From Planctomycetota bacterium (GTDB lineage: Bacteria > Planctomycetota > UBA8108 > SXIK01): a stretch of DNA of 64,000 nt. Of the stretch, positions 16,294-58,512 are shown in pieces. The stretch covers positions 2,208,001 through 2,272,000 of the forward strand of contig OZ244999.1 in assembly GCA_965223265.1 (NCBI GenBank), given 5' to 3'. Position 1 is the stretch's first letter; every line of letters starts with the position of its first letter. A model generated the notes under the pieces. It was not told the origin of the DNA and did not search any database. It worked only from the letters and a program-made list of their open reading frames with translations. The translations under genes were made by a program, and so were the position numbers.

Positions 16294-16318
16294 GCGCGGC
16301 AAGCACGTTAGGATTCTC

Positions 16319-34600: not shown

Positions 34601-37600
34601 TGGAGCTCGACGTCATCGAGGAGCTCATCGAGGATTTGTCGTTCAACTTCGTCACCGGAGACGCCGAGTTCCGGTTCTTTCGAATCAAGCATGGCAACCC
34701 GACAGCGATCGCGACCGCTCTGGACAACCTCTTCAATTCGAAAACGCCGCGCGTGATCGATCCACGCGGCTTCGTTCAGTTGCCGCCGCCGGTGATTCAG
34801 ATCGCTACAGACCGTCGCCTTCGCAGTGTGATCGTGCGGGCTACGCCTGCAGACTTCACGTTGATTGAATCGATTATCGAGCAGCTCGACAGCGAGGGGG
34901 CGATGTCTGAGCTGAGGTTTCGGTCGTTTCCTCTGCAGCACGCTGACCTTGATGAGATCTTCCCTACGGTTCAGCAGCTCGCCGAGGAGCTTCAAGCCGA
35001 GAACCCTGGCGAGCCGGTGCGACTGGCGATGGACACGAGATCCGGGGCGATCGTGATTGCCTCGAGACCTCAGATCATCCTTCAATTCGAGCGCTTGATT
35101 CAGACAATCGACCGACCATCGACCTACTCCGCCGCCGAAGTTCTGCTCGTGCCTTTGCGTCAAGCCGATGCTGGCGCCGTCGCCGCCGTTTTGCAGCGCA
35201 TGCTGCAGCCCAGTCCGGGGGCGACCGCGACTCCAGCGGCGCGTGCTCTCCAGGAGCAGGTGCGCCAGTTGAGGATTCGTGACTCCGAGGGCGTGCCTGT
35301 GCTGCTTGATCTCTCGGAGCCGATCAAGATCATGGCCGATTCTGCCGCCGGCCAACCCGGTGGCAATCGACTGATCATCACTTCAACGCCTGGAAATCTG
35401 CGGGCTCTTGAGGCGGTCGTGCAGCTCCTCGACACTGTACCGATCGTCGACGGTGTGAGCGTTCGCCTGGTCAAGCTCAAGCGAGCCGATGCCAACACCG
35501 TTAGCCAGATCGTTCGTGACGTATTCCAACAGGGAGTGCGACTCGGTCTCGGCAGCGCGGGGCCGGGACAACCGGAGTCAGAAGCTGGCCGTGCGTTGAC
35601 GCGTCCGCTGAACGTTTCTGCTGATCGCCGGACCAACACGTTGGTGCTGAGCGGGCATCACGCTGCAGTCGCGCTCGCCTTAGGACTCATCGACGACATG
35701 GACCAGGCTGGGGATCTTTTCTTGACAGAGGTGAAGCTCTTTCCGCTGCGCTACAACTCGGCGCAGCGTCTTTTGCCGCTTCTGCGCTCGGTGTTCTCAG
35801 AGTCTGGTGCCACGCCTGGATCCGAAGGTGTCAGCACCCAGGTCACGCGTCTGCGGACTACCATGCCACAGCTTGAGCCCAAGACGACGGAAGTCGCAAA
35901 GGCGCGCGCACCCCTCACGATTCAAGCCGATGGCGCATCGAATACATTGATCGTTGCAGCGCGTTCGGACAGCATGCCGCTCATCGCCGACATCATCGCG
36001 ACGCTCGATATCCCGGCCGCTGCTCGCTTCGAAAACGTCCGCATTTTTCCTCTGGTGAACGCCAGGGCCCGCGACCTGCAGCAAATGTTGAGCGATCTCG
36101 TGCGGACCTCGACGGTGAGTCCTGCAGATCGACCATCAATCAGTGTCGACCTGCGAACGAACGCACTCGTTGTGGCCGCCTCGGAGCAAGGATTGGTCGT
36201 CATCAGACGGCTTGTCGAAGAGCTGGATCGAGAAGTGGTGGACGGCGTGGAAATGGTGGCGCTGCCTTTGAAGTACAACGATGCGCTTCAGGTCGCGGCC
36301 TCGCTGCGACAACTTTTCAACACGCGCCGCCGCGCGGTGACGCTCGGGGGTGGGCAGGCAGACCCTCGTGATCGAGTGGACGTCCGCGCCGATCGCTTCA
36401 CCAACTCACTTCTCGTCGTCGGCACGAGCGAGAACATCGAGCTTGTCCGGCAGATGCTACTGGATCTCGACGCCGAACCAACGGCCGAAGGGGGCGTGCT
36501 GCACATCTTTGTTCTTCAGCACGCAGACGCGCAGCGCGCAGCGACGATGCTCCGCAATCTGATCCGCCAGGGGCTTTATCGTCCAGGGGCCACATCCGGC
36601 GGCGCACAGGCGACGCGGGAACGTATGGCCGTCACGATCGACCCGCGCGTCAACGCGCTCATCGTTTCTGCTAGTCCCGAAAACTTGGCGATCGTCAAAC
36701 AGCTTGTCGGCCAGATCGACCGTGAGGAGTTTGCCGGTGTTGCTGGAGTCAGGCTCTTCAAGCTCAACCATGCATCCTCCGCTCGATTGGCTCCGATTCT
36801 GCAGCAGTTCTTTACGGCGCGGCGAACAGGCGAGGCGACGGTCGGCGATCCAGAGCGGCTCGTGCCCGTTTTCTTCATGGCCGACAGTCGGACGAATACG
36901 CTGCTTGTGGCCGGCAGCCAAGAGAGCTTTGCCGCGATCGAGCGTATGGTGAAAAAACTCGATGTGCCGGATGTCAGAAGCAACGAGATCTTTCAGGTCT
37001 TTCATCTTCGCCAATCGAGTGCGACGCAGCTGCGCGACACGCTGGACAAGCTCTTCCTCAATCGGCCAGCCGTCCTCGGCAACGTTCCCGTGCAGCCGAT
37101 CACAATTGTTGTCGACACGTGGGCGAACGCTCTGATTGTGCGCGCGTCGGTCGATGACATGGAGATGGTGGCGTCGCTCGTCGAGCGTCTTGATATCGAG
37201 CTCACATCGAGCGGTACGAAAGTCCAAGTGATCTCTCTCGAGAAGGCCAACGCTCAGAGCGTCGCGACGACGATTCGCTCACTCTACGCCTCGGGCGGCG
37301 ACAGCGCACCGGTAGCCATCAGTGTGGACGAGCGACTCAACGCCCTTGTGATTTCTGCCGGAGAAACCGATCAGAAGCGTATCGAAGATCTTGTCCAGAA
37401 GCTCGATTCCGGATCGGTTGCAAACGTCAGCGAGATTCGCGTCTTCACTCTTGAATTCGCCGATTCGGTGCAAGTGGCAGCGCTTCTTTCTGACGTCCTC
37501 ACGAACGCACCGATCAATGACCTCAACACCAATCGCCAGACGCTTCTTCAGTTCATCTCGCAAACGGAAGACGGGGAAGAATTGATCGCTTCGGCGCTGC

Positions 37601-39279
37601 AAGAGGGCGTCGTCGTGCTTCCGGATACGCGTACGAATTCGCTTTTGGTTTCGACTCCAGTCGATAGTTTGCCACTTCTCGAACAGCTTGTGCACAGGCT
37701 CGACAGCAGTACGCCGCCGCTCGCCGCGATCAAGGTGTTCACCCTCAAGAATGCCGATGCGCGTCAGATGGCAGAGCTCCTTTTGGACATCTTTCGCTTG
37801 CGTGAACCGGGTGCGAGTGCAGCTCGGTCGATTCGCTATAGCCTTGATCGACGCGGTGGTCAGGACGAAGGCGAGCCAGATGCAGAAGGAATGCAACCGT
37901 TTGAGTCCGCTGATGACTTGGGTGTCGCGACCATCGGTTCGGCAGAGCAGGCTTCGCTTACGGTTACCGTCGACGTTCGCACCAATAGCATTCTGGTCGG
38001 CGGCAGCGAACAGTATGTCGCCTTCGCCGGGGAAATTATCGAAGAGCTGGATTCCAGTCCAGCGCGTGAGCGACGGACGCAGGTCTATCGCCTGCGTAAC
38101 GCTCAAGCGGAGAGTATACAGACTGCGCTGACGAGTTTTCTTGAGCAGAGCCGTCAGCGCATTACCGAAGCGCTCGGTGTCGAGGCTCTCGGGTCGGCAG
38201 AGCGGCAGCTCGAGGAAGAAGTCGCCATCGTCGCAGAGCCTGTCAGCAACACATTGCTCTTGTCGGCGAGCCCTCGATTTTTCGACGAAATCTACGACAT
38301 GATCGAGGAACTGGATCAGCCAGTGCCACAGGTACTCATCCAGGTGCTGCTCGCCGAAGTGACGCTCGACAGCACGAACGATCTCGGGATCGAATGGATC
38401 ACCTCGGGTGACATCGACGGCACTCCGTTCGAGAGCTCGACCGACTTCGGGGTGCCCCAAGACCTGGACACCGCCGGCGGTCTTGCGGCGTCGATCACAG
38501 GCGGCGACGTGCGGTTCCTGCTCCGTGCTTTGCAGACGGACGGGCGACTCGAAGTGCTGAGTCGTCCCCAGATCCTCGCGACCGACAACCAGCAAGCCGA
38601 GATCAACATCGGGCAAAACGTCCCTCAGATTACAGGCAGTCAGTCGACGGAGCTAGGCAGCGTCAACAACCTCGTCGAGTATCGAAACGTCGGTGTCATT
38701 CTGCGTGTCACGCCGCGGATTTCACCCGACGGTTTCGTCAAGATGGACGTCGAGCCGGAAATCAGCTCCCTCAGTAGTTCGTCGGTCGATTTTGGTACTG
38801 GTGTGACCGCTCCCATTTTCAACGAGCGCAGCGCGACGACAACGGTGAGCGTGCAAAACGGTCACACCATCATCATCGGTGGCCTCATCAGCACCTCGGA
38901 CGATGAGCGAGAGCGCAAGGTCCCGATTCTTGGTGACATTCCTTTCCTGGGGGCGGCATTCCGTAGCCGCAAAATGGAGAAGAGACGGACCGAGCTGCTC
39001 ATTATTTTGACGCCGCACGTGCTCGTCAATGTGGCAGAAGCGGATCGCATTACCGACGACAACATACAAAAATCAGGAATCCAAGGGCAGGAGAAGCGCG
39101 ATGAGATGCAGAAGGCGCTTCTTGACGAGCTGTACGACCTGAACCGACAGCGCGAGCTCGAGGTGAACCAGCCGCACGACGATGTGTCTCCCTTCGTACC
39201 TGGCTCCGAAGACGAGGAGCTGCGGCCGCTTGAGCCGACCCCGGAAGGGCTCGACATCTCACCATTCGTCGACGCGTGA
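25696..39279 (+). CDS. gspD: Giant secretin (GspD-like), 4527 aa: signal peptide, N0, about 49 Secretin_N repeats, C-terminal secretin domain
   Basis: N0 (IRFQFSG...LNVIL); repeated R-v-f-x-L...D-x-x-x-N-x-L-I-V-x-g...I-x-x-L-D units; C-domain PQVLIQVLLAEV, LSRPQILATDN, VGVILRVTPRI, IIIGGL, KVPILGDIPFLG, TELLIILTPHV. Confidence 0.93.
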   Translation: MSLRRTVCLLCVLLLTTRTPFADETGGDSQPKKPTGDTSAGEAANSAAPTSPEKHSDAANETAAEKDASKSERNIRFQFSGIPYADAVRRFADMAGKPLVGEVKIDGLLTFADEQAYTYDEALDTLNVILAMKGHVLVEAGRYLRLTTKDELPQLPLEILYGTKRTGDKRPGQLVTVVFRLKHLDANETAVAASKMLSGAGSVSPLQRGRGLVVTDALSTIQRIEELILELDVEQQGTRSLKTFRLVNSSGAVLGEMIQRTLGSETAPREARFVNNKWEVAPPDPELFVTVTYDEPTQTLVVFGPRDLLKLAEELVTRFEKEGGDEGELRVYTPRVLKAETLAPMIRQAVPGIAGESDSAAQASNKARLIVDAQSNRLIISARVGEQMQRIEEFLRVVDRHEREAKSDKDDDGDGGPQSRVLPIATASSAGVMEILRSATTERDRDGNVLQRLHVAFDAETKALIVSGSKHYVELAQRLVQQLNDAATSTSPRQMRYLDLTGKVAAADLPSTVTLLQQLVRQQLGTGAGDAGSVTMTPAPNRAGIIVTASSEHLTTVESTLAGLLETAPKREARSLRAIVLRHARVDDVMSTLQKLTDDAARDRWPVSPPSLVADSRGNRILVTGTMEQLEAVAKLTAELDHAPVRTSRTVRRVAVRSHRPSELKPLLDAFLRQEFSGRGAKHPLPEVFVDDVGRRLIVLAESDDHAPIEAMIGELDAKEVQVRTTRALDLKARRAAEILPLVKKLYDAQVGQGGDGRAPSLDASGDGKRLLVTGTDEEIQRIESIVRALDVAERPEIERQTRAIPVIAREVDAFRSLVEQLYTAQRRGQRPPPGGATTIVADPKSRRLLVTGAAEEIALVESIARQLDPHEGKSERPETRVYKIGTANATELVGLLEQTLNQDPARPAARVLADAPSNRLIITAPPSVLDTAAAVIEELDQKFDQQPRELRIVELDVGDADETAALVTQLHGERMRSLRGGRYQPRAKILGDRSTNRLILTAGSDEMKVLDEIVSQLNRVDRKEEDSRVFRLEHVRAEQIADVVATAMTTYDDRRRPVERVRVAPDAATNSLVISGKTSDLELVASVVQQLDRADSRGKVGVRVVEVDSDRAASVAAMAERVWGEQNRDAQGADALAVTSRGGRVVIAGPQNVLGPVASLVEEIGAQVTSAPRRLRMVKLENGLIAADALPLLKQSYDAETRGTANGDATFRVDAAGNRLLVIASDAEFEIIGEILATLGEGIRTAERKTRMFEFAGATELTRVAPLVRQLYEQELKGSAELGPPEAQFIEDSRGARLIVTASEPHLERVASIISRLDAEEGSSAQRRRETRTFSFTTDAELRQTQDLAQKLYAAELEGQRPPAGGEATFTVDAADRRLLVTGSSSELDRVEAIFAQLRRDAARDPRRTTKSLEVHAERVGDVLELLRTVYQAQLAGGDTPVGGPATIVADAKNRRLLVTGDDIELAKIEALLRQLDPADAERQGIGTRILRVRSVAAADVFGLVEKALNGDREVPLVRLQLDRESNSIVATGTESALKLTAEIVSELDDDPRSGPRELKVIELEVGDADSMTTTLKRLHEEALRSQFGLNYRSRASFIADAANNRVIVTAPRDEMEAIDRFAEQLNRVSRKQEDSVVIPLKHGQASRLAEIVLRAMTVYDRRNRPIERVRVAADDASNSLVVSGATADLEAVKAFIAELDSPLQRPPLSLRILRLARPHADQVASLVQRVASEHQASVGRDAVISVQPSADRRRVIVVAPKAEMEQIAGLVVEFDKASFDTPKELYVEELTHARAQEIAPLVQRAYDDQELGADHGAVIRADALLNRLLVLTHASQIDRVRQIIAKLDVTSDEDRETRFFRLRDVDELGQLHVLAERLYREEMKGNGPRNQADAQFIRDDTNVRLIVTARASHIEKIAEILDRLRTGSDRDPRQESQIFALADSSEVSRLLPLLQRLYRQEFEHQPGGASAEFIADAEAHRIIVSGPHAHLERVAELLSRLRAETAPDAERELQVVELDAADADSAVPLVLELLRDLMQNRRGPGYRVQARIVPDGASNRLLVTAPEHELAEIRKIAASLDAERDDPEPETRVYDLETAIASSLAETVRRLYEERSAARGAKRVGQVMILSDEATNRLVVTAPADEYTVIEEIIERLDAVSKRSAGTRIFKLKTADAQQLATILSSSLTRRVGNRQIPRVSIGADRKTNTLIISGEPDDLQAAALIVEEFEGMDSEAPALLRVYEVKEVDAGKLRSDLERLYRRQAENTPNLGTDALFHADSATNRLFIIATQEELVRIHELIGQLDVDQGPDTRQLRVFTVSRTSAASVSAILQQFFVERAQGSHAERVRVSASPDDRTIVVNAPAAILERIESLVTDLDGEGRSDQLVYRSYQLSDGDASILAPKLERLFAQELQTPTTEPQARFEADVTLNRLLVAARVDELPEIDRLVNELTSNAQLSSQVQTILLRESSATQVVSVLKELLATENKEPEGAQALRVSAAPALNAVVVHGLPQRMAFARELIKSLDRVPEGGKAVVQTVKLNSAEAVGLAAAVSQAIEARGLSDRTRRVRVTAEPNSNSILIDGPRDEVNEVIRIIRELDSSARGGGIDVRIYKLENGQVREVSATMRTMLDQIIQQQVQRNPGMPRPPFVVSVDERTETLIVYTTPRHFPIVEQLLTNLDKAPERSARTVHYVALENIDALRAVRQLEALYLNQSSGERPVIEADSLDNSLTIIAKTADLDAIIDLVEQLDAAAPSSEIQVRVVPLVQMPADQMASMLISLYSQMTESEVQLSERLPPRGGDGVSRATDGPTGAPPVSPRSSEPSVTNGADEATGGAKKKEAPEDTNTGRDGGSQGRGADTGRGESGAGSAAPGEPAAGTEKQSGDLAPPSDPARPGVTEAPLAPADSTADDRDPTSGDAPPTGARRGDDARQEEAETPSHAKVFLAVDKSANAILLSGPRLELDVIEELIEDLSFNFVTGDAEFRFFRIKHGNPTAIATALDNLFNSKTPRVIDPRGFVQLPPPVIQIATDRRLRSVIVRATPADFTLIESIIEQLDSEGAMSELRFRSFPLQHADLDEIFPTVQQLAEELQAENPGEPVRLAMDTRSGAIVIASRPQIILQFERLIQTIDRPSTYSAAEVLLVPLRQADAGAVAAVLQRMLQPSPGATATPAARALQEQVRQLRIRDSEGVPVLLDLSEPIKIMADSAAGQPGGNRLIITSTPGNLRALEAVVQLLDTVPIVDGVSVRLVKLKRADANTVSQIVRDVFQQGVRLGLGSAGPGQPESEAGRALTRPLNVSADRRTNTLVLSGHHAAVALALGLIDDMDQAGDLFLTEVKLFPLRYNSAQRLLPLLRSVFSESGATPGSEGVSTQVTRLRTTMPQLEPKTTEVAKARAPLTIQADGASNTLIVAARSDSMPLIADIIATLDIPAAARFENVRIFPLVNARARDLQQMLSDLVRTSTVSPADRPSISVDLRTNALVVAASEQGLVVIRRLVEELDREVVDGVEMVALPLKYNDALQVAASLRQLFNTRRRAVTLGGGQADPRDRVDVRADRFTNSLLVVGTSENIELVRQMLLDLDAEPTAEGGVLHIFVLQHADAQRAATMLRNLIRQGLYRPGATSGGAQATRERMAVTIDPRVNALIVSASPENLAIVKQLVGQIDREEFAGVAGVRLFKLNHASSARLAPILQQFFTARRTGEATVGDPERLVPVFFMADSRTNTLLVAGSQESFAAIERMVKKLDVPDVRSNEIFQVFHLRQSSATQLRDTLDKLFLNRPAVLGNVPVQPITIVVDTWANALIVRASVDDMEMVASLVERLDIELTSSGTKVQVISLEKANAQSVATTIRSLYASGGDSAPVAISVDERLNALVISAGETDQKRIEDLVQKLDSGSVANVSEIRVFTLEFADSVQVAALLSDVLTNAPINDLNTNRQTLLQFISQTEDGEELIASALQEGVVVLPDTRTNSLLVSTPVDSLPLLEQLVHRLDSSTPPLAAIKVFTLKNADARQMAELLLDIFRLREPGASAARSIRYSLDRRGGQDEGEPDAEGMQPFESADDLGVATIGSAEQASLTVTVDVRTNSILVGGSEQYVAFAGEIIEELDSSPARERRTQVYRLRNAQAESIQTALTSFLEQSRQRITEALGVEALGSAERQLEEEVAIVAEPVSNTLLLSASPRFFDEIYDMIEELDQPVPQVLIQVLLAEVTLDSTNDLGIEWITSGDIDGTPFESSTDFGVPQDLDTAGGLAASITGGDVRFLLRALQTDGRLEVLSRPQILATDNQQAEINIGQNVPQITGSQSTELGSVNNLVEYRNVGVILRVTPRISPDGFVKMDVEPEISSLSSSSVDFGTGVTAPIFNERSATTTVSVQNGHTIIIGGLISTSDDERERKVPILGDIPFLGAAFRSRKMEKRRTELLIILTPHVLVNVAEADRITDDNIQKSGIQGQEKRDEMQKALLDELYDLNRQRELEVNQPHDDVSPFVPGSEDEELRPLEPTPEGLDISPFVDA

Positions 39280-40028: not shown

Positions 40029-41159
40029 CTACCGGGAGTCGCGGAAACCGACGCGATGAAAGACGATCGCAATGACATGTAGCCGGCCCCCGCAGCACGA
40101 GCAGAAGGGATGTTCGGTGGGACTGTCCGTCGTCGTCGACGGCGCCGCCCTGGCTCCGTTCGCATCGGAATGAATCTGTGCGCCGTCGGCGGGAGGGTTC
40201 ACTCTAGCGACAAAGACTCGCACCTCGTGGAGGGAGACGGCGCTTTGCGGACTGAGGAATCCGTAGTGACGCACCTTCTGTAGCCCCCGAGGTAGGACGT
40301 GCTGGAGGAAGCGGCGGATGAACTCCAGAGCATCGAGCTCCATGGTCCGCCACCGCCGACTGCCCGACTTCTTCCAGCGAAAGCGAACGCGACCATCGTC
40401 GCAGGAGACGATGCGGGCATTGGAGATCGCTACGCGAAAGACGTAGCGTGATAGATACGTGAGTGTCGACTCGCCGTCACCGACGGCGCGCGAGTCGGTG
40501 ACGAAGTTCTCTGTCCACACCGCAGGCGCAATGTCCTTGAGAAGACCAGCCCGCTGCAGCTCGTGGCGGAATTTGGCGCGAAAGATCTTCGACAGCGCCT
40601 TGACCGGCACGAGAAAGTCGGGGCGCGAGGTGATCCAGCTCGCACCATCGTCGCTCAAGCCGCCGGCCGGCACCAACACGTGCAGGTGCGGGTGATATGC
40701 CAACGCCCGTCCCCAAGTGTGCAGAACCGCGGTGAAGCCAAGGCGCGCCGCACCGAGAAAGCGTGGATCGCGTGCGAGCTTCTGAAGCGATTCAGCGGCG
40801 GCGCGAAAGAGCGCCCGGTAGCAGGCACGCTGCTGCGAGCGCACGAAGGGTCGTAGCGTTGCGGGCAGAGTGAATGTAAGGAGAAAGTAGGGCACCTCGA
40901 GTCGATGCTGTAATTGCTCGGCGAGCCAGCGCACGTTCTTGGAGGACTGACAGCCCGGACAATGGCGGTTGCCGCACGAGCGGGGCGTCCGGTGAGAGCG
41001 AGCGCAGCTCTCGCAGCGCCAGCGCACGTAACCCAGATCGCCAGTGCCACAGGCGCTCAGCAGCGCCAGGACACGACGGTGCTGCAGAGGCACGCTGGAA
41101 CCGTGACACTCCAGATACTCCTCGCCATAGCGCGTGAAAATCTCCGCAAGCGACGCCAC
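40029..41159 (-). CDS. IS91-family transposase (Zn-binding + Y2_Tnp)
   Basis: SCGNRHCPGC, LHTWG...HPHLH (HUH), YLSRY (Y2), RRFLQHVLP..VRHYG. Confidence 0.93.
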   Translation of the reverse strand: MASLAEIFTRYGEEYLECHGSSVPLQHRRVLALLSACGTGDLGYVRWRCESCARSHRTPRSCGNRHCPGCQSSKNVRWLAEQLQHRLEVPYFLLTFTLPATLRPFVRSQQRACYRALFRAAAESLQKLARDPRFLGAARLGFTAVLHTWGRALAYHPHLHVLVPAGGLSDDGASWITSRPDFLVPVKALSKIFRAKFRHELQRAGLLKDIAPAVWTENFVTDSRAVGDGESTLTYLSRYVFRVAISNARIVSCDDGRVRFRWKKSGSRRWRTMELDALEFIRRFLQHVLPRGLQKVRHYGFLSPQSAVSLHEVRVFVARVNPPADGAQIHSDANGARAAPSTTTDSPTEHPFCSCCGGRLHVIAIVFHRVGFRDSR

Positions 41160-42073
41160 GGTGCGCTATTGGCCGGCGTTCGTCCTCGCCGCTTTGCCTC
41201 CTCTGAGCGAGGGCGTACCATGAGCGCGTTGATCGTCGCGTGGGCCTGCTCTTCGCCATCACGTGTAAGGTGCAGGTAGATCGACGTAGCCTTGAGCGAC
41301 CTGTGGCCGAGGTACTTCTGGATAACACGGAGGTTGACACCAGCCTCGAGTAAGTGTGTCGCATAGCTGTGGCGCAGAGTGTGGGGCGAAACGCGTTTCT
41401 TGATGCCAAGCTGCGTGGCGACGCGACGCAACGCTGCCTGAGCTGTCTTCCTCGACACGGGCTGCGTGGCCGATCGTCCCTGCTTGTCCCCGCGGCCGCG
41501 GGCGGGGAAAAGAAGTCGCGGGTTGCGATGCGTCTTCCAGTAGCGGCGCAGCGCTTCGAGAGTATCGGGGGGAAGCGGCACATAGCGGTCAGCGGCACCC
41601 TTGCCGCCACGAACGTGCACGAAAGAGCGTGCCGCGTCGACATCTCCTACTTCGAGCGAGATGCCCTCAGAGATCCTCAGGCCAAGGGAGTAGATCATCC
41701 AGAAGCAGGTGCGCCACTGCTGGCTGCAGGTCGCCGCGATGATCTCGTGAACCTCTTCGACGCTGAGGACGTCTGGCAGCTTGGATTCCTTCGGCGTTCG
41801 CAAATCCTCCAGCGTCTTCCAGTCGCGCGGCACCGTGCGTCTGAAGAAAAATCTCAAAGCGCTGTAGGCGATTTTCAAGGACCCGATAGCGAACTGACGC
41901 TCGTGCCTGAGGTGGAAAAGATAGTCGCGGACTTGAGTTTCCGAGAGCGTATCGGGAGACTTGTGATAGTGTTTCGCCAGCTGCCCGACGGCCCAAACGT
42001 AGACCCTGCAGGTACCGTCGGCGAGGCCGGCAAGTTCCAGATCCTGGAGAAACTTTTGGCGAAGAGGCGTCAT
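41057..42073 (-). CDS. Tyrosine recombinase/integrase (IS91-associated)
   Basis: SAM_4-like N-terminus, KLPDVLS, GLRISE, GKG..DR, HTLRHSYATHLLE, LGHRSL..TSIY. Confidence 0.93.
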   Translation of the reverse strand: MTPLRQKFLQDLELAGLADGTCRVYVWAVGQLAKHYHKSPDTLSETQVRDYLFHLRHERQFAIGSLKIAYSALRFFFRRTVPRDWKTLEDLRTPKESKLPDVLSVEEVHEIIAATCSQQWRTCFWMIYSLGLRISEGISLEVGDVDAARSFVHVRGGKGAADRYVPLPPDTLEALRRYWKTHRNPRLLFPARGRGDKQGRSATQPVSRKTAQAALRRVATQLGIKKRVSPHTLRHSYATHLLEAGVNLRVIQKYLGHRSLKATSIYLHLTRDGEEQAHATINALMVRPRSEEAKRRGRTPANSAPWRRLRRFSRAMARSIWSVTVPACLCSTVVSWRC

Positions 42074-43067: not shown

Positions 43068-43143
<76 letters not shown>

Positions 43144-43761: not shown

Positions 43762-46700
43762 ATGCCGAACCCAAAGCCGAGAAGCAAGCAAATGGTCTAT
43801 GTGTCTCCGGCGGCTGTCGGAGGTCCTCCGCGCGAAGTTGATCTGAGTTTCGTCAGACGGCTGCTGCTCGCGGATACGTGGGCCAGATACGCGACGCATC
43901 GCCGGCAGCGGGAGCCTCTCGTTGCCACCGGGGTGGAAGCTTTCGGGCAGGCCGCCACTGACCGTGCCGCGGCGGAGGAGCGGAGCGGCTTCGACGTGGC
44001 AGCCAGCGGGATGGCCGGCGTCAAGGAGCTCTGCGAGCAGTTGCAAATTACGCCGACCCCATCGCTCCACTCAACGGCCGACCCTGTGTCTTGCGGTTTC
44101 ACACAGTGGATTTTCTTGCGCCTCTTGGAGGGAGGGCTTCTCGAGCGTGTTGAGCGCGATCGAAGTGTTTGCGAGCAGTGCCAACGAACGTTCCCGATAG
44201 GTCGCTACACCCGCTGCCCGTTTGACCAAGGCGCGTTTGTGGACGATCAAGTGACTCGGTGGTACCTGAATCCGGGGCCGTTTGCTGAACGACTCCTGAA
44301 CGACGTCGACAAGGGAAAATGGAGCCGATCCAATCGGCGTGAGCAGCGGGAGATGCTCGATCGTCGTCGCGGTGTCGAACTGATCTTTTCGATCTCACGC
44401 CCTTTCGAGCAGGAGTACTTTGAGGTCGAGGTCTTCACGACGAATATTGAGGCGATCCATGGCGCGACTTTCCTGCTCTTCGACCCATTCCATCCGCTCG
44501 CCGATAGTATCGTCGACGCCGCGTATTTGGACGAGGTCAACCGTTATCGAGAGCGCGTCAAACATGGAACCGAACGCCGTGGTTCTGCGGTGCGGACCGG
44601 GGGGTTCGCACTCAATCCGGCCACGCTCCAGCACATCCCGATTCTATTGAGCCCACTGGCGAACGAGCCGTTCGGTGACGGGGTCGTGATGGGGGTGCCG
44701 GCACACGACCGCGAGCTCTTTGCCCTGGCCCGCAGTATGCGTTTACCGATTCGGGAAGTGATCCATGGCAACGGCGCTAAGTTCGATGACAAGAGCCGGC
44801 TGGTGGAGCCGTGGCTTGGCGATGGTGTCCTCACCAACTCGGGACCGCTGACGAGTCTGTCGCGTAAGGTTGGGCGCGACCGCATCATCTCGACGCTCTC
44901 GCGTCGCGGGATCTGTCGCCGCGTTACCCGACACCGATATCGTCGCCACGCGATCTCAGGTCCCTATGGCTGGGGAGCGCCCGTTCCGGTCCTTCATTGC
45001 GGAATCTGCGGACCCGTGGGCGTTCGCGACGACGAGTTGCCGTACGCGTTTGCTTCGGCTGCGACCAAGAGCGACCAGGCGCCAAGCGATGCGTCGCTGC
45101 GATGTCCTGAATGTGGTGGGCGCGCTGACGCCGATCCGCACACGATTCTGCCATGGCTCGGGCATTCGTGGCATTTCTTGCGGTCGATCCTGCCGAGACT
45201 TGAGGTCGCCGCATCTGTACCTGAGGTCGACGCGTCGCAGGCGACTGCGGTGTCTGAGCCAGCCGTAGTTGAGCCGGCAGAGGCAGCCGAGGAAGCCGCT
45301 TCGAGCTTGAGTTCGACTCCGAGCCCAACACCGGCGACACCTTCTTCGAGCATCGCTTCGCGCCACGCTGCCGTCGATTCTGACGCGCCAGCTGACGAAC
45401 CTGTGGCGACGGGCACACCGCCGCCGTCCGCGCCGTCGATCAAGACTGCATCGGGCGATGCCGCCGAAGAAGAAGTGGTGTCCGGCGACCAAAGTCGCGG
45501 TGGGGCCGAAGTCCGTGTGCCGGCTCATGCGGAGAGTTCCCCGGCTGTCTCCAGCGACGCGGGAGTTCCCACGCAGCCAGTACCGGAGTCGCAAAATGCC
45601 ACGAGCGAGTTGCCCGAGGAGCTCGACGCTCCCGAGCGTCCCGACGCGTCCTCTGAGGCGAGAGAGACTGGCGCGGCGGCCAAAGTGAGCAGCGAGGCTG
45701 TGGGAACGGAAGGTGAGAGCAGCGACGAGGATCAAGCCGAACCATCGGTGGTGGCGGCGCCTCAAACCGCGGCTGCTCCAGCGGGAGACGGTCGGCCGCA
45801 ATCATCGCCGGCAGAGCGGCTTGCTCCTCCTCGTCCTCGCAAAGGGTTTCGTCAGCGTCGTACGTTTTCCGGCCCGCAGCTGCCACTACCAGTTGACGCG
45901 GCTTTCGGAGCCCCCGACGAATGCGTCAAAGAGGTTCTTGGATATCGTTTCGTCACCAAGTTTCTGTACGACCTAGGCGAGTGCCCAGTCTATGAGCCGT
46001 TCAGTCGGTTTTGTTCGGTCGCCACGGCGAAGTGGGGTGACGACGGTGACAACGCCGCTGCCGCTCGCTGTGTCGATCGGGGGAAGGTGGACGAATGGAT
46101 TTCACGTTACGGCCTTGACGCTTTGCGGTTGTCCGTCTTGTTTGCCGGGGCGGTCGATTCCCCTATCGAGTTCGACGCACGACGAGTACGGCAGATGCGG
46201 CGACTCTGCGAACGCATTCGACGACAGGTGAAAGAGCGTCACGAAAAGGGTAAGTTCGTCTCCGGCCGCATCCTTCGCCGTAAGCACCTCTTGATTCATG
46301 CGCTCACGGAGCGTTTGGAGGCGTGGAAGTTCCACACTGCCATCGCCGCACTGCTGCGTTTCGTGCGCCTGCTCGGCAGTCCGGAGGTCACCATCGAGGA
46401 AATGGACTCCGCATCCTTGCGGACCTTCGTCATTCTGCTCTCTCCGTTTGCTCCGCAGCTCGCCCAAGAGTTGTGGGGGATCTTGGGCCAGGAGGGTGAG
46501 GTGGCCTCACAGCCTTGGCCCGTCGCCATCGACGAGCATGTCCATCCTCCGGAGCGTGAGTTCGCGATTCTCGTCAATGGCAAAGTGCGCGACCGAATGG
46601 AGCAACCGGCGACGTTGAAGGCCGAAAAAATCGAGTCGAACGCCTTACAGCGCGAGGCGATTCGCGAGCTCGTTGGCCCGAGAAAGATCAGCAAAGTCGT

Positions 46701-46767
46701 CGTCGTACCGCACCGGTTAGTGAGCATCGTGTTGGAGGCAGAGCCGAAAGCCGACGACGATGCTTGA
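43762..46767 (+). CDS. Leucyl-tRNA synthetase-like protein with degenerate catalytic motifs (pseudo-LeuRS)
   Basis: Colinear with bacterial LeuRS (EVFTT, VMGVPAHD, WGAPVP, LPVD, YGLDALRL, FHTAIA, LSPFAP, VNGKVRD, KVVVVPHRLVSIV); no HIGH or KMSKS. Confidence 0.85.
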   Translation: MPNPKPRSKQMVYVSPAAVGGPPREVDLSFVRRLLLADTWARYATHRRQREPLVATGVEAFGQAATDRAAAEERSGFDVAASGMAGVKELCEQLQITPTPSLHSTADPVSCGFTQWIFLRLLEGGLLERVERDRSVCEQCQRTFPIGRYTRCPFDQGAFVDDQVTRWYLNPGPFAERLLNDVDKGKWSRSNRREQREMLDRRRGVELIFSISRPFEQEYFEVEVFTTNIEAIHGATFLLFDPFHPLADSIVDAAYLDEVNRYRERVKHGTERRGSAVRTGGFALNPATLQHIPILLSPLANEPFGDGVVMGVPAHDRELFALARSMRLPIREVIHGNGAKFDDKSRLVEPWLGDGVLTNSGPLTSLSRKVGRDRIISTLSRRGICRRVTRHRYRRHAISGPYGWGAPVPVLHCGICGPVGVRDDELPYAFASAATKSDQAPSDASLRCPECGGRADADPHTILPWLGHSWHFLRSILPRLEVAASVPEVDASQATAVSEPAVVEPAEAAEEAASSLSSTPSPTPATPSSSIASRHAAVDSDAPADEPVATGTPPPSAPSIKTASGDAAEEEVVSGDQSRGGAEVRVPAHAESSPAVSSDAGVPTQPVPESQNATSELPEELDAPERPDASSEARETGAAAKVSSEAVGTEGESSDEDQAEPSVVAAPQTAAAPAGDGRPQSSPAERLAPPRPRKGFRQRRTFSGPQLPLPVDAAFGAPDECVKEVLGYRFVTKFLYDLGECPVYEPFSRFCSVATAKWGDDGDNAAAARCVDRGKVDEWISRYGLDALRLSVLFAGAVDSPIEFDARRVRQMRRLCERIRRQVKERHEKGKFVSGRILRRKHLLIHALTERLEAWKFHTAIAALLRFVRLLGSPEVTIEEMDSASLRTFVILLSPFAPQLAQELWGILGQEGEVASQPWPVAIDEHVHPPEREFAILVNGKVRDRMEQPATLKAEKIESNALQREAIRELVGPRKISKVVVVPHRLVSIVLEAEPKADDDA

Positions 46768-46971
46768 CGGGCTGTCGACCTCCGTTTGAGCTCGACGCCG
46801 GCTCGCGTTTTGTCTCGCCGGTCATGGACCGAGTAAGCGTGGCGACGCGGCGATCGAGCGCTCTGGCTCGGCCTCCCGCTCTCTCTCAGCGGAATCTTGC
46901 GCGTTGAGACGTGCCTTCAGCCGAAGAAGGTTGGGAATAACCGAAACTGCAAAAGCCGCCGGAGACCTTTC

Positions 46972-48177
46972 ATGCGTTTTGGGAACGTATCCAAGAGACT
47001 GCTAGCAGATCTGACGAAGCTCGCGTTGCTCGTTTCGATGTTCTTCGTTCTACAGCATCAGGTTACGGGAGTGCGCGCAGTTGCAGAGAGTGAGTCGCGG
47101 GTTGTGGCCAATCACGCCGCCGATCAGCGGCGTCTCGCTGAGCGGAACGAAGAGCTGCAGACCCAACTTGAGCACGCGGTACTCACGCTGACGGAGCTCA
47201 AGAAAGAAGTGCGGAGCCTCTCGACGACACTCTCTCGGGCGCGTACCGAAACCGTGCGTGTGGACGAAAAGATGGCGTCGCTTGAGACTCTCGTGTCGCG
47301 GCGAATCGACGGCGAGAGCCGTCGCGTTGACGCGCTTGAGAAGCAGACTGTGAAGGCAGATTCCCAGATCGCCGAGCTGTCGAACAACCGCGTCCGCGAC
47401 GCGAAGCGAATGAAACGCCTCATGCTTGACCCCACTGCTCAGCTGCGCGGCAACGGCACCGTGGGGAGTGGTGTCTTGTTCTACAGCGAAGCGCAACGGG
47501 AAGAGTCTGTAGATGCCGGTTACACAACCTTCGTTTTGACCGCCTATCACGTGGTCTTGGAAGTGTCTGGAGACGATCACCCGCTCTTCGTCGAAGAAGT
47601 GCGCGTGACGATTCCCGGGGCTGACGAAATGACGCCGTTCTCCGCGCGCGTGGTCCTGTTTGATCGCCAGCGCGACTTGGCTCTGCTCAGACTCGACGCA
47701 GATGTGCGATTCGACAATCTCGTCGATCTCATGCCCCTGGAGGCGCTCGACCGTCTTGATGTCTTCTCACCGGCTTACGCAGTTGGCTGTCCGCTCGGCA
47801 ATCAGCCGTTCCCGACGCTTGGCGAAGTGTCTTCTCGCAACAAACCAGTGGGCGCGCAGAATTTTTGGATGCTCAACGCGCCGACGTTTTTCGGCAACTC
47901 GGGCGGCGGAGTCTATCTCGCCGAGAGCTGCCGGCTGATCGGGATCTCCAGCATGATCTACACCTACGGCAAGTCGAACCCCACCGTCGTTCCCCACATG
48001 GGTCTTTTTGTGCCGCTGCGGGAAGTTTATCGCTGGCTTGACGAGGAAGACTTCGCGTTCGTCTACCGTCGCCGGCCTGTCCCGGATCGCCTGGTCTGGA
48101 AGCTGCTTCCCTCCGTCGAAGAGGGGGAGGCCAGCTCTCCGTTCGCGAGCACCAGCGCGACCGCAGACGACGATTGA
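46972..48177 (+). CDS. Membrane-anchored trypsin-like serine protease with coiled-coil stalk
   Basis: TM, long coiled coil, GSGV, LTAYHVV, DLALL, GNSGG (triad intact); no PDZ evident. Confidence 0.88.
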   Translation: MRFGNVSKRLLADLTKLALLVSMFFVLQHQVTGVRAVAESESRVVANHAADQRRLAERNEELQTQLEHAVLTLTELKKEVRSLSTTLSRARTETVRVDEKMASLETLVSRRIDGESRRVDALEKQTVKADSQIAELSNNRVRDAKRMKRLMLDPTAQLRGNGTVGSGVLFYSEAQREESVDAGYTTFVLTAYHVVLEVSGDDHPLFVEEVRVTIPGADEMTPFSARVVLFDRQRDLALLRLDADVRFDNLVDLMPLEALDRLDVFSPAYAVGCPLGNQPFPTLGEVSSRNKPVGAQNFWMLNAPTFFGNSGGGVYLAESCRLIGISSMIYTYGKSNPTVVPHMGLFVPLREVYRWLDEEDFAFVYRRRPVPDRLVWKLLPSVEEGEASSPFASTSATADDD

Positions 48178-48302: not shown

Positions 48303-48645
48303 CTGGGGTTCGCAGGGAGTGAACCATCGGGCGGTACTGGTGGCACTCCCACAACCGACCATAGCGTTGCCTCGCAGACTGGATTGGCGTACATTCGTGC
48401 CTCTTCGGTCCATCGGGATCGACGGGGTGGGGGCGAAGCCGATTTTTTCCGAGAATCGCTTCGACCATGATACGTAAGTAAACTGACGGTCGAGCCGTTC
48501 GCGCCTGTGTCTATTGGCGGGTGCAGCGGGCGACCGAGTCTAAAGTTAGCGGAAATTGAGCTCGGCCTGGTTTCGTAAGCCAGGGCGGCGGCGTGCGCGC
48601 CGCGCCGAGAGCTTTCCAAGCGGCCGACGAACGGAGAGTCGAAAC

Positions 48646-49749
48646 ATGCGGAACAGTCATCCTTTTGGTTGTCAGCGAATCCTCAGACGGGCGGCTGTCC
48701 TGACGGCCAGTCTCCTTTTCGTCGCCAGTTTCCGCGTTGCACCCGGCTTATATGGCCAGACGGACGCTCCAGTGCTGATTGGGCCAGGAAACACGGCACG
48801 CACGAGTGATCCCGCCGCCGTCAAGATCGTCGATCGATATCTCGACTCGATCGGTGGGCGTGAGACGCTGAGCAAGATCAAGGATCGTCGGACTGCGGTC
48901 ACCAACGTGCTCTACCAGCCTGCCGGGGAGGCCCACGCGCGGATCTCCCTGTTCATCAAGGATCACTACAACTTGCGTGAGGAGTGGGAGCTCGACTATG
49001 AGCTCATGGAGAACCAGAAACTTGCGTTTGTGCAGATCTACAACGCTGAAGAAGAGGAGGCGTGGGTCCGCGTCCTCGATCGTGTCGATCAGCTTGACGG
49101 CCGGACGTTGCATGTCTTCGTGTACGGGAAGTACATGGACGATTTTTTCAATCACTGGGAAGCGGATGGCTACACCCTAAGACTTGATGGTGAAGCCGAA
49201 GTCGACATGGGCGAGGATAGCGAGCCCATCCCTGCTGACATTGTGTTGGTGACTGACTTTGGGCGACGCCAATCGGAGCGCTACTTCTTCTCGAAGGAGA
49301 CAGGCCTACTGATCAAGAAGGAGTGGCGCGACACGACGAAAGACCCGAAGAAGCCGATCCGCCGCGAGCAGTACTACAAGCGCTACAAATCGATTCCTTT
49401 CATGGACGACTCGGGCCTGTCGATCAAGTTTGCGATGGTGCTCGAGATCTTCGGCGACGGTGATCTCGACACAGAGCGGAGATTCTCCCTCGTGCAGTTC
49501 AACTCTGGACTCAGTCAGGATCTGTTCAAGCGACCGGAAGGTAAGCCCGGTCCGCGCGTCACTGGATCAGGGCAGCGCGGCGTCCCGCCGGTCGCTCCCA
49601 AACCGGAAGGGAGCGGGACGCGAACGCGTCCGGGAGGCAAACCTGGAGGCAGTGCCACGCGCAGACCAGGAGCGTCGGCTCCGACGCCCGCCCCGGCTCC
49701 GACGCCCGCCCCGGCTCCGACGCCCGCTCCGGCTCCTTCCCAGCCGTGA
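48646..49749 (+). CDS. Exported protein, LolA-like/lipoprotein-sorting-type fold (tentative), Pro/Ala-rich tail
   Basis: Signal peptide; IVDRYLDSIGG start, YFFSKETGLLIK, VQFNSGLSQDLFKRP end. Confidence 0.6.
   Translation: MRNSHPFGCQRILRRAAVLTASLLFVASFRVAPGLYGQTDAPVLIGPGNTARTSDPAAVKIVDRYLDSIGGRETLSKIKDRRTAVTNVLYQPAGEAHARISLFIKDHYNLREEWELDYELMENQKLAFVQIYNAEEEEAWVRVLDRVDQLDGRTLHVFVYGKYMDDFFNHWEADGYTLRLDGEAEVDMGEDSEPIPADIVLVTDFGRRQSERYFFSKETGLLIKKEWRDTTKDPKKPIRREQYYKRYKSIPFMDDSGLSIKFAMVLEIFGDGDLDTERRFSLVQFNSGLSQDLFKRPEGKPGPRVTGSGQRGVPPVAPKPEGSGTRTRPGGKPGGSATRRPGASAPTPAPAPTPAPAPTPAPAPSQP
49678..49735 (+). repeat. 18-bp tandem repeat (about 3 copies) encoding (APTPAP)n
   Basis: GCTCCGACGCCCGCCCCG repeated. 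Confidence 0.85.
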
Positions 49750-57600: not shown

Positions 57601-58512
57601 GATCGGACCGGCAACTCCCTGGCGAAAGTCAAATCGCTCAACTTGCTGGCAGAAGGGCATCGCCTGCTCGGCGAGTACGACGATGCGACCAACGCAGTTG
57701 AGAGCGCCTTAGCCATCGCGAAAGACAATGACAATCAGTTTAGCGCATCGGAGGGACTGTTCGTTCTGAGCAAGATCGCCCTCGACACCGGCGCAATCGA
57801 TCGCGCCAAGGAATACCTCTCGATCGCCTACGAGGAAGAGCCGACGGAGAACCCTCGTGCGCTGGTGAAACTGCTGGGATTTCGCTCGCGCATTGCCGCG
57901 GAGGTCGGAGATCTCATGAGCCTCGCGAGCTTCGCCAATCGCGGTCTCGAGGTGAGCGACTCGTATCGACTCGCGTTCTACTCGGCAAGGTTCCTAGCCA
58001 CACTTTCAGAGCTGCATCTTCGCCTTGGCAATATCGACGATGCAGAGCGAACGGTCGCGCGCTTGAGGGAAGAGTCGCTGCGCTGCAGCTCGCCGATCTT
58101 CACGGCGCGTGGTCTGCTTGCTGAGGCGACGCTGTTCGCAGCGCAGAAGAGTACTCGGCGCGCGGCTACATATTTCCGGCGCGCCGAGAGGATTTTCGAC
58201 CAGGAGGGCAGTGAAAGAGACCTCTTACAGCTCTACTACGCGTTCGGACTCTTTTGCACAGAGCAGCGCGAGTTTGAGCAGGCTTTCGTCTGTTTCGAGG
58301 AGGGTGGGTACCTTTCGAAGAAACTGAAGCTGAACTACTGGCGCGCTCAGTTCAGCTACGCCAAGGGAAAGTTCGAGTGTGCATCACCCGAGGGGATTCA
58401 AACGCGGGCGCTGCGTTTCTTCCAAGAGGCTCAGCGTATCGCGTCCGAATCAGGCTACGCAGGCGTACTGTCTCTTGTGCGGAAGTCGCTCGTCGCGTCG
58501 GGGCGGCCGTGA
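54607..58512 (+). CDS. Hanks-type Ser/Thr kinase + degenerate AAA/STAND-like domain + TPR repeats
   Basis: LGRGGMGSVY, VALK, HGDLKPAN, DFG, GTAYYIAPE; middle domain lacks Walker A GKS/T; long C-terminal TPR array. Confidence 0.85.
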   Translation: MTLQVATPNATSTSLAERYRIVRELGRGGMGSVYLVEDLRVGRLVALKQMRPSVGGGARILQKEFRALATLRHPGLARVYDFGVDDKTQDVFFTSEFVDGKDVVSVCKPLDLSRQESLVEFLDVIAQILRGLEFVHSRGLVHGDLKPANILVARTSNESFLSKLIDFGLISREKDFGGRRLVGTAYYIAPERILGAQIDRRSDLYSFGALLYRLVTGRVPFPSKSKLAVLKGHMEGVPLMPVDLVPTIPRKVSDIIMKLLRKQPAQRFASCLEIIEALNDAYQLSMPLETEETTASYVDSPKFEARDRHMRTCYEYFLSACNTEVARDEKEDMELTLFASSRDDELGSAGRSAFPCGRMVILRGEYNLQSMSFLDELKSLVETSHARFVAIDCGQEEHGSQGDFLHLVRELAFIDKNLIEEGLLEQAEALCASGELQPNGALLKMLIYGLLQRTKSEPCVLYFENLHAAGEMCLLFLDYLMGVQTRSEVDGSRLFTVGVFDDDAFDESGRLGELLHGAEWSGQFLDVWLERLKQPEVVRMLNSTFVGHDFPDSFVGSLTETSDGQPEIIVQICRQYLKEGMIRRAPNGWTLDDNFHQVELPHHVRTTLKKTIAALPPDALKLAIGMAFLGGRPDTQLAAKFSRLKTSRAEECIDLLRERKILRRDGTGYAFKYRSAGRILYDLVPEQQRQSFHERAGVLCEEYCKLRGEANHPLIARHFILAGNVDKGVNYGRMAARDHEERKRLRQALSTYVEVVSLARRGPREDYLRALHELVRVRLSVGEYPQAYEELSELVIEASNTTTPSRAEVLIDLGRVNVGLGDMRGAESYIDEAVHLLAGADDGTLRADAYTVRARIRLIQGRFEEGIRDCELALRVEKPRKKLDCALADAQNALADCNFARGDRLAAINACVRALTILDDERRPELVDEILFTLGKLYKFKDKFSMARHEFRVCARLRGGMGAVAAQAEALSELGGIELFLGKTRRATAFLAHAVELYDRTGNSLAKVKSLNLLAEGHRLLGEYDDATNAVESALAIAKDNDNQFSASEGLFVLSKIALDTGAIDRAKEYLSIAYEEEPTENPRALVKLLGFRSRIAAEVGDLMSLASFANRGLEVSDSYRLAFYSARFLATLSELHLRLGNIDDAERTVARLREESLRCSSPIFTARGLLAEATLFAAQKSTRRAATYFRRAERIFDQEGSERDLLQLYYAFGLFCTEQREFEQAFVCFEEGGYLSKKLKLNYWRAQFSYAKGKFECASPEGIQTRALRFFQEAQRIASESGYAGVLSLVRKSLVASGRP

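Follow-up and report, generated by a model that had tools for sequence, protein, structure and literature searches.

The accessible text of a 2022 review of duplicated synthetases gives only two cases among the leucyl-tRNA synthetases (LeuRS), the archaeal LeuRS-I and LeuRS2 (PMC9437257). As described there, LeuRS-I of Sulfolobaceae binds tRNA-Leu and makes leucyl-adenylate without aminoacylation, has a disrupted CP1 domain and an acidic C-terminal domain, and has been proposed to serve a tRNA-dependent role outside translation, and LeuRS2 of Halobacteria has low aminoacylation with its signature motifs and its affinity for tRNA kept. The excerpted account of NmLeuRS2 from Natrialba magadii likewise presents a duplicated LeuRS of strongly reduced function that keeps its affinity for tRNA-Leu (PMC4005665). 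HisZ, a paralogue of HisRS, is also listed by the review among the duplicated synthetases (PMC9437257). Here we analyze a LeuRS-like gene, which we call pseudo-LeuRS, carried by a 64,000-nucleotide stretch of a Planctomycetota genome (contig OZ244999.1, positions 2,208,001 to 2,272,000; this whole stretch is the window, and coordinates are those of the window unless a contig is named). It is very likely that the gene encodes a conserved, non-catalytic LeuRS paralogue. The overall reading that we favor, with moderate confidence and from its sequence, is that this is a bacterial paralogue that would work by binding tRNA-Leu or a tRNA-like RNA.

The gene is a single open frame on the forward strand; an alternative database gene call starts at Met11 and gives a product of 991 residues. 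A signal sequence is absent. The parts of the gene are as follows.

43762..46767, forward strand: pseudo-LeuRS gene, one open frame of 1001 codons plus stop
43837..43851, forward strand: degenerate HIGH site, V26-D-L-S-F30 where canonical LeuRS has LHMGH (alignments to LeuRS)
44137..44271, forward strand: zinc-finger (ZN) domain, about residues 126-170, with Cys137, Cys140 and Cys152 (column map to E. coli LeuRS)
44359..44961, forward strand: CP1 'editing' domain, residues 200-400, with TTNIEA (226-231) and AHDREL (314-319) (Pfam PF13603)
44962..45201, forward strand: second zinc-binding segment, together with the last part of the connective region, residues 401-480 (family alignment)
45205..45864, forward strand: acidic insert, predicted to be disordered, residues 482-701 (low model confidence and composition)
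45865..46086, forward strand: degenerate catalytic fold, second half, residues 702-775, with GAPDEC (716-721) for GGxEHA (alignments)
46087..46551, forward strand: anticodon-binding helical domain, residues 776-930 (Pfam PF08264)
46237-46287, forward strand: family-specific motif R826..G830-K-F-V-S..R835..K841-H842, inside the anticodon-binding domain
46552..46764, forward strand: C-terminal domain, residues 931-1001, VNGKVRDRM ... VVPHRLVSIV (aligns to the end of T. thermophilus LeuRS)

Pfam recognizes the LeuRS editing domain (PF13603, residues 200-379, E 1.2e-24) and Anticodon_1 (PF08264, residues 837-956, E 4.8e-13) in the product, and matches the class I catalytic core only weakly, over residues 31-153. 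By sequence, its closest match of known structure is T. thermophilus LeuRS (1h3n, phmmer E 2.8e-76). Against TIGR00396, the model for bacterial LeuRS, the protein scores 280 bits, which is below the curated cut-off of 548.4, and against the archaeal model TIGR00395 it scores 46.7 bits, pointing to a bacterial-type ancestry. On score and motifs, pseudo-LeuRS therefore fails as a bacterial leucine--tRNA ligase (TIGR00396 equivalog, EC 6.1.1.4), while its fold and domain order pass.

The motifs were mapped by a phmmer alignment to T. thermophilus LeuRS 1h3n and by a column map to E. coli LeuRS. An earlier note on this DNA, made by eye from the sequence, had read the protein as a LeuRS paralogue, intact but catalytically dead, with its tRNA-facing domains retained and a new use acquired, and both alignments bear out the substitutions on which that note relied. 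The LHMGH of the HIGH region is V26-D-L-S-F30; DAFGLP is EAFGQA, with E59 in place of E. coli Asp80; ISRQRYWG is ISGPYGWG; and GGxEHA (GGIEHA in the note) is G716-APDEC-721, with E. coli E532 and H533 replaced by D719 and E720. In CP1, TTRPDT is T226-TNIEA-231 and AHDxRD (AHDQRD in the note) is A314-HDREL-319, with L319 at the position of the editing Asp345 of E. coli; Thr252, another editing-site residue of canonical LeuRS, is not kept either. Both Asp345 and Thr252 (E. coli numbering) are required for LeuRS editing. No counterpart of T. thermophilus LeuRS residues ~585-647, which hold the leucine-specific domain and KMSKS, was found in pseudo-LeuRS by alignment, in agreement with the reported absence of KMSKS, and the counterparts of E. 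coli Asn168 and Glu169 in the ZN domain are deleted, with a gap at that place in 23 of the 27 close relatives. The loss of MDTF also stands, but the replacement given for it, LPWL, does not: the alignment gives ILPW, an offset of one residue.

What the note described as retained is indeed in place, beginning with the unbroken 1001-codon frame. The ZN domain keeps C137, C140 and C152, and has D155 where most relatives have a fourth Cys; the second zinc site keeps H412-C413..C416 and C448..C451, in a segment whose columns are nearly invariant in the family alignment. The anticodon-binding and C-terminal domains are present as well, the former by its PF08264 match and the latter by its alignment to the end of T. 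thermophilus LeuRS.

These losses are not peculiar to one sequence. A census compared 27 proteins of the window type, 35 of a less degenerate sister form that is described below, and 41 canonical LeuRS; 4 or 5 of the 27 window-type rows, mostly partial sequences, are gapped at the N-terminal columns. The counts, given as window type, less degenerate form and canonical LeuRS, are the following.

HIGH (H.GH): 0/27, 0/35, 41/41
KMSKS: 0/27, 0/35, 41/41
Editing Asp: 0/27, 0/35, 41/41
RQRYWG: 0/27, 32/35, 41/41
GGxEH: 0/27, 34/35, 41/41
First two Thr of TTRPDT: 20/27, 0/35, 40/41

Every one of the 27 close relatives has the losses fixed, against 41 of 41 canonical LeuRS in which the motifs are kept, and this goes far beyond chance. 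Judged by its motifs, pseudo-LeuRS would be unable to activate leucine, to charge tRNA or to deacylate it.

The genome, which is one contig of 9.18 Mb, has a working LeuRS of its own. The canonical leuS lies at C1:3067311-3070349, ~816 kb from pseudo-LeuRS, scores 899.8 bits against TIGR00396 and has its motifs intact (HVGH, TTRPDT, AHDERD, RQRYWG, GGAEHA and KMGKS), so pseudo-LeuRS is not the only leuS of the genome. The two proteins are only 22-27% identical in their alignable parts. A recent in-genome duplication was considered as the origin of the gene and rejected, because the pseudo copies score higher to some canonical LeuRS from outside than to the resident one; for the window protein the values are 367 bits to P0160 and 139 bits to its own canonical enzyme. 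The idea that pseudo-LeuRS occupies an ancestral leuS locus found no support: genes of the block that surrounds it (FloA, NfeD, protease, rlmN, dprA) were found within ~9 kb at none of the 18 canonical leuS loci examined in other classes of the phylum. Group I intron splicing, a side job of some LeuRS, was likewise tried as a role and set aside, as RF00028 had 0 matches in this genome.

A word-indexed search over 5.8 billion proteins returned 27 clusters at 303-2242 bits, all of them from Planctomycetota metagenome bins, all without the Pfam tRNA-synt_1 core, and named at source 'class I tRNA ligase family protein' or 'leucyl-tRNA synthetase'. The scores continue into ordinary LeuRS at 299 bits and below with no gap; because they grade in this way, we set the boundary of the family by domain content. 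All 41 related genomes match the query, a tally that includes canonical LeuRS. Full-length, stop-free frames at 35-46% identity occur in the family and order of the window's organism, and 13 of 19 order-level loci have one uninterrupted frame of 967-1287 residues; of the others, L020 and L023 are split into two frames, and contig ends truncate L018, L019, L025 and, among the shorter ones, L027/L028. In a class-level sample of 39 genomes of at least 88% completeness, 35 have a second LeuRS-like frame, and the other four comprise one with the very divergent kind (G022), two with fragments only (G007 and G028) and one in which none was seen (G021). Among the matches listed from 121 genomes across the phylum, no separate second LeuRS frame was seen outside the class. 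In a pattern scan of named genomes, the clear family members numbered five, to which L074 is added; the remaining 63 loci were canonical LeuRS and were used in the control set described below.

Three forms of the gene can be told apart, and they are positional orthologues: the same block of genes surrounds all three and is kept across the class-level lineage, one of uncultured Planctomycetota. The less degenerate form (e.g. L031, P0125-P0159) is a second LeuRS-like gene in related families of the same class. It keeps Asp80 in 35/35 members and the Glu-His pair in 34/35, has SVNQ fixed in place of HIGH in 28/35, and is without the internal acidic insert, though one member that was checked at full length has an acidic insert near its N-terminus. 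The form passes TIGR00396 at 552-710 bits against the cut-off of 548.4, despite having no HIGH, KMSKS or editing Asp, and can consequently be auto-annotated as a true LeuRS; one member is named 'leucine--tRNA ligase, partial' by its source. Its loci include L029, L031, L033 and others, and it occurs on G023:C19, G025:C28, G027:C10 and G156:C412. The third form, seen in one family (L037/L131, G022:C16), is a very divergent LeuRS-derived frame of 772 residues at the same locus and before the same protease gene, with scores of only 160 bits against the window protein and 34 bits against canonical LeuRS. The working LeuRS of that family is of another sequence type (LHMGH, DTMDTF) than that of the rest of the class. 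In a quick maximum-likelihood IQ-TREE phylogeny (54 rows, 812 columns, unrooted, with long branches), all 34 canonical LeuRS fall on one side of a branch with SH-aLRT support of 100 and the three pseudo kinds on the other, an arrangement to which long-branch attraction may contribute. That the three kinds share a locus speaks more strongly than the tree for a single origin.

Selection on the gene was assessed as the ratio of non-synonymous to synonymous substitution rates (dN/dS), by the pairwise Nei-Gojobori method on close pairs with dS 0.10-0.67. The values are as follows.

Pseudo-LeuRS, whole gene: 0.19-0.30
Canonical LeuRS, same genome pairs: 0.10-0.135
CP1: 0.07-0.10
Anticodon-binding domain: 0.08-0.10
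C-terminal domain: 0.05-0.13
Second zinc segment: 0.14-0.18
N-terminal catalytic half: 0.20-0.28
Insert: 0.25-0.33

Constraint has loosened on what was once the catalytic core, and CP1 and the anticodon-binding and C-terminal domains are held as tightly as a working synthetase. The loss of many catalytic motifs, together with a whole-gene ratio about twice that of canonical LeuRS, is what one would expect of a decaying, functionless duplicate, a pseudogene in the making. Against this, the ratio is nowhere near 1, and it falls to 0.05-0.13 in three domains; the frame is intact at most of the order-level loci; derived motifs are common across the family, and the locus is kept across a class-level lineage. 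Decay is thus extremely unlikely. The earlier note had named the canonical leuS, the orthologues and the ratio of substitution rates as the checks to be made; orthologues exist across the class, and together with the resident leuS and the constraint they support its reading of an intact, catalytically dead paralogue with a new use.

It could also be argued that pseudo-LeuRS has not ceased to be an enzyme and, by means of non-standard residues, acts as an atypical LeuRS or as a ligase that activates leucine, or else that it is a back-up LeuRS with resistance, or a decoy, in the face of antibiotics that target LeuRS. A second LeuRS for self-immunity is known, AgnB2 of Agrobacterium radiobacter K84, according to the portion of that work available (PMC5059758), and the LeuRS fold of pseudo-LeuRS is complete in the predicted model. 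However, HIGH, KMSKS, the leucine-specific domain and Glu532/His533 are missing, as is Asp80 in the window protein, and the N-terminal catalytic half is the least constrained of the folded parts. Moreover, a housekeeping block and no biosynthetic cluster surrounds the gene, and its class-wide conservation is unlike the pattern of an immunity gene. We regard an enzymatic role as very improbable.

An AlphaFold2 model of the protein was built on 23 family members (predicted template-modeling score, pTM, 0.71). The predicted local distance difference test (pLDDT) is mostly >85 over the folded parts and ~30 across residues 482-701; in the C-terminal domain it is ~90 at residues 931-990 and then 69 and 42 in the last two 10-residue blocks. 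In a Foldseek comparison with the Protein Data Bank, the top matches are all bacterial LeuRS (2bte_A at E 1.7e-51), with target-normalized template-modeling scores of 0.6-0.72, 5on2_A giving the 0.72. The model thus depicts pseudo-LeuRS as a LeuRS body that is complete and that is interrupted, in the second half of the Rossmann fold, by a disordered loop. This insert, which the earlier note did not mention, is 220 residues long, rich in Ala, Ser, Pro and Glu, acidic and predicted to be disordered. An acidic insert stands at the same place in 13/13 order-level orthologues, at 152-253 residues and with a net charge of -22 to -79; the site holds only 11 residues in the less degenerate form and in canonical LeuRS. 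A short LPED.D.F-like motif occurs in the insert of 10 of 23 relatives and is missing from the window protein. The insert may be an acidic segment in competition with RNA, or a place where partners dock.

What, then, might a LeuRS without catalysis do? The accessible part of a 2026 structural study of E. coli LeuRS describes a resting complex with tRNA in which the CCA end lies in the editing pocket, and it assigns activation and transfer to Asn168 and Glu169 of the ZN domain, Asp80, Glu532 and His533 of the pocket, and the KMSKS loop (PMC13454842). In that account, it is CP1 and the anticodon-binding and C-terminal domains that keep tRNA-Leu in place on the resting enzyme, and these are the parts most constrained here. 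Our proposal that pseudo-LeuRS binds tRNA-Leu follows from this pairing: the residues for activation and transfer are gone, and most of the parts that hold tRNA in the resting state have been preserved by selection. Taken by itself, the claim that the protein binds tRNA-Leu or a tRNA-like RNA seems to us evenly poised, being drawn from conservation and from analogy with the E. coli enzyme.

The clearest mark of a new, shared function, as far as the alignments tell, lies in the anticodon-binding domain. We defined a position as shared-derived when a single residue occupies it in 80% or more of both pseudo kinds and in no more than 15% of canonical LeuRS. Of 13 such positions, ten are in the anticodon-binding domain (R826, G830, F832, V833, R835, K841, E879, S923, E925 and P929), one in the C-terminal domain (R945) and two in CP1. 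Several of them belong to a derived basic motif, R..xG[KR][FY]VS.R....KH, which is present in the window protein as R826, G830, K831, F832, V833, S834, R835, K841 and H842 and sits in a loop that is variable among canonical LeuRS; it is this basic G[KR]FVS..R....KH loop that appears to be the mark. By comparison, 67 positions are conserved in all three groups, canonical LeuRS included, and 19 of these fall in residues 401-480.

We envisage that tRNA-Leu, or an RNA of like shape, would be held in a resting, 'editing-like' and non-reactive pose, with its elbow and variable arm on the C-terminal and anticodon-binding domains and its CCA end placed in the altered CP1 pocket. Such binding may be adjusted by the basic, lineage-specific motif in the anticodon-binding domain, and in the window's order the long acidic disordered insert may compete with the RNA or recruit partners. 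Instead of catalysis, the likely output would be to sequester tRNA-Leu, to sense it or to pass it on.

Several points weigh against this proposal. Binding of tRNA is deduced from conservation at the level of domains and from analogy, and the protein has lost the leucine-specific domain, with which the E. coli enzyme also contacts the D-loop of the tRNA. The role of the shared-derived motif could lie with a partner protein or with some other RNA. The two forms have altered the CP1 pocket differently, with the Thr-Thr pair present in 20/27 of the window type and 0/35 of the less degenerate form, so that a common mode of binding the CCA end is not assured, and 13 of the 35 less degenerate members are without the ZN-domain columns. 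The N-terminal third aligns at low identity, which makes single-residue assignments there less sure, and dS exceeds 1 in the more distant pairs, only those of dS 0.1-0.7 being reliable.

The same data bear on whether the protein is a LeuRS-derived scaffold or sensor for some target other than tRNA-Leu, be it another RNA (e.g. a tRNA-like mRNA element), a small ligand, or a partner bound through the acidic insert. The place of the derived motif, in a loop where canonical LeuRS vary, would fit such a target, as would the acidic and disordered nature of the insert with its LPED.D.F-like motif in some relatives, although not in the window protein; the Asp80, Glu-His pair and SVNQ of the less degenerate form hint at ligand binding. 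However, the most constrained parts are exactly the three domains of LeuRS that hold tRNA, and the leucine/adenylate pocket is destroyed in the window protein and in 27/27 close relatives. Because of that destruction, ligand sensing cannot be the function common to both forms. We consider a different target somewhat unlikely.

A more specific version of the favored tRNA-binding reading makes pseudo-LeuRS a sensor of the charging state of tRNA-Leu: in the resting pose, a free or leucylated CCA end would be read in the rebuilt CP1 pocket, and a signal would pass via the acidic insert, displaced by RNA or recruiting a partner. A gene for a Ser/Thr kinase with TPR repeats lies in the same conserved block and was raised together with this suggestion, which we hold to be distinctly unlikely. 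The HisRS-like domain of GCN2 is a non-catalytic synthetase scaffold reused for regulation. If the suggestion were true, pseudo-LeuRS would be its independently evolved functional analogue in Planctomycetota, and the less degenerate form, with its leucine pocket kept, would sense leucine too.

As to special ligands, a nine-tRNA array lies outside the window at C1:5388119-5389466 (Glu, Glu, Leu-GAG, Leu-TAG, Ser, Ser, Arg, Gln, Trp). The two 'tRNA-Leu' in it measure 77-78 nt and have no long variable arm, the five other tRNA-Leu genes being of 84-89 nt; no link between the two short genes and pseudo-LeuRS was found. Aragorn also reports an odd tRNA with a two-base anticodon at 2022659-2022732 of the genome.

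The block that holds pseudo-LeuRS runs FloA, NfeD and NfeD1b (minus strand), pseudo-LeuRS, a protease, an exported protein, rlmN (minus strand), a small open reading frame, dprA, the Ser/Thr kinase-TPR gene and aspS. Its members downstream of pseudo-LeuRS include the following.

46897..48177, forward strand: HtrA/DegS-like serine protease, next downstream (Pfam Trypsin_2, weak TIGR02037)
48556-49749, forward strand: conserved exported protein with no family match; its N-terminus is signal-like and its tail, rich in Pro and Ala, ends in (TPAPAP)n
54607-58512, forward strand: Ser/Thr protein kinase with TPR repeats, 1301 residues, in the same block in several relatives
58614-60416, forward strand: aspS, class II AspRS with a GAD domain, in the same block in several relatives

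At its N-terminus the protease has a hydrophobic anchor or signal; it also has a long, helical, coiled-coil-like stretch and the motifs TAYHV, DLALL and GNSGG, and has no PDZ domain. By tblastn and in the fetched loci, its gene directly follows pseudo-LeuRS at every locus with enough flank and in all three forms. It is single-copy in the genome. In a control set of 86 leuS loci, of which L074 proved to be a family member, it is found at none of the remaining 85 (~1 Mb in total). In every larger locus examined, the exported protein follows the protease.

One could therefore imagine that pseudo-LeuRS works with this HtrA-like membrane protease as its cytoplasmic regulator, substrate or adaptor, given the same-strand adjacency in all three forms and the absence of the protease from 85/85 canonical leuS loci. 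Yet the whole 10-gene block is syntenic across the lineage, and the adjacency may be inherited order only. In addition, the anchor or signal places the catalytic domain of the protease probably outside the cytoplasm, pseudo-LeuRS has no signal sequence, and the intergenic gap of ~130 bp holds a weak terminator-like hairpin. A joint function is improbable, and we take the adjacency as context and not as a shown partnership.

Upstream, the window departs from its relatives: a segment of ~29 kb lies here between NfeD1b and pseudo-LeuRS and is missing at this place in the relatives examined. A tRNA gene marks its edge, and a transposase gene that overlaps or abuts a tyrosine integrase gene lies near it. 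A giant secretin gene follows genes like those of type II secretion and type IV pili, a cluster that is missing here in the related loci examined. The features of the segment are these.

14626-16293: GspE-like, in the type II secretion-like cluster
16133-17518: GspF-like, in the same cluster
18404-19465: pseudopilin-like, in the same cluster
21449-22840: GspK-like, in the same cluster
22827-24566: PilM-like, in the same cluster
25696-39279, forward strand: giant secretin frame of 4527 residues (Pfam: 33 Secretin_N stretches and one C-terminal Secretin)
40029-42073, reverse strand: IS91-family transposase (Y2_Tnp plus zinc-binding domain), near the tRNA-Ala(GGC) gene
43071..43143, reverse strand: tRNA-Ala(GGC) gene, just upstream of pseudo-LeuRS and at the edge of the segment (synteny)

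The earlier note knew of no described bacterial equivalent, and our search of open-access papers and bioRxiv found none; the reviewed LeuRS cases in the accessible text are the archaeal ones given at the outset, and the text available of a 2016 survey of >2500 genomes mentions neither Planctomycetes nor pseudo-LeuRS (PMC5388404). Pseudo-LeuRS is a member of a conserved, undescribed bacterial family, although non-catalytic synthetase paralogues as such are already known. The locus offers a natural series, all under selection, in which the pocket is kept, the pocket is lost and an insert gained, or the protein is very divergent, and a comparison of the three forms makes the use of a synthetase scaffold without catalysis directly testable. 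On the practical side, the less degenerate members may be miscounted as leuS in estimates of genome completeness or in metabolic reconstructions.

Compared with canonical bacterial LeuRS (TIGR00396; T. thermophilus 1h3n/2bte, E. coli 4aq7/4arc), pseudo-LeuRS has the same Rossmann core, ZN finger, CP1, second zinc site, anticodon-binding domain and C-terminal domain, and shares the 67 conserved positions. It differs in having no HIGH, KMSKS, leucine-specific domain, Glu532/His533, Asp345 or Thr252, and in having a 220-residue acidic insert, a score below the cut-off and a true leuS alongside. The less degenerate sister form is the nearest relative in kind, with the same block and protease, the same derived motif in its anticodon-binding domain, and the same lack of HIGH, KMSKS and the editing Asp; unlike pseudo-LeuRS, it keeps RQRYWG, GGxEH and Asp80, has no internal insert and passes TIGR00396.

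Among the systems described elsewhere, LeuRS-I, as far as its accessible description goes, is also a second copy beside a working LeuRS, with a disrupted CP1, an acidic divergent segment and no aminoacylation, a trait that the motifs predict for pseudo-LeuRS. However, LeuRS-I is archaeal-type and forms leucyl-adenylate, whereas pseudo-LeuRS is bacterial-type and has no activation motifs, and the acidic segment is C-terminal in the former and an internal insert in the latter. LeuRS2, in the same partial account, resembles pseudo-LeuRS as a duplicated LeuRS of strongly reduced function, but the signature motifs that it keeps are all absent from pseudo-LeuRS. HisZ and the HisRS-like domain of GCN2 share with it the reuse, for binding or regulation, of a synthetase scaffold without catalysis; they differ in being class II, in their ancestry and in that their partners are known. 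Together with LeuRS-I, these two show that non-catalytic synthetase copies are a known source of regulators.

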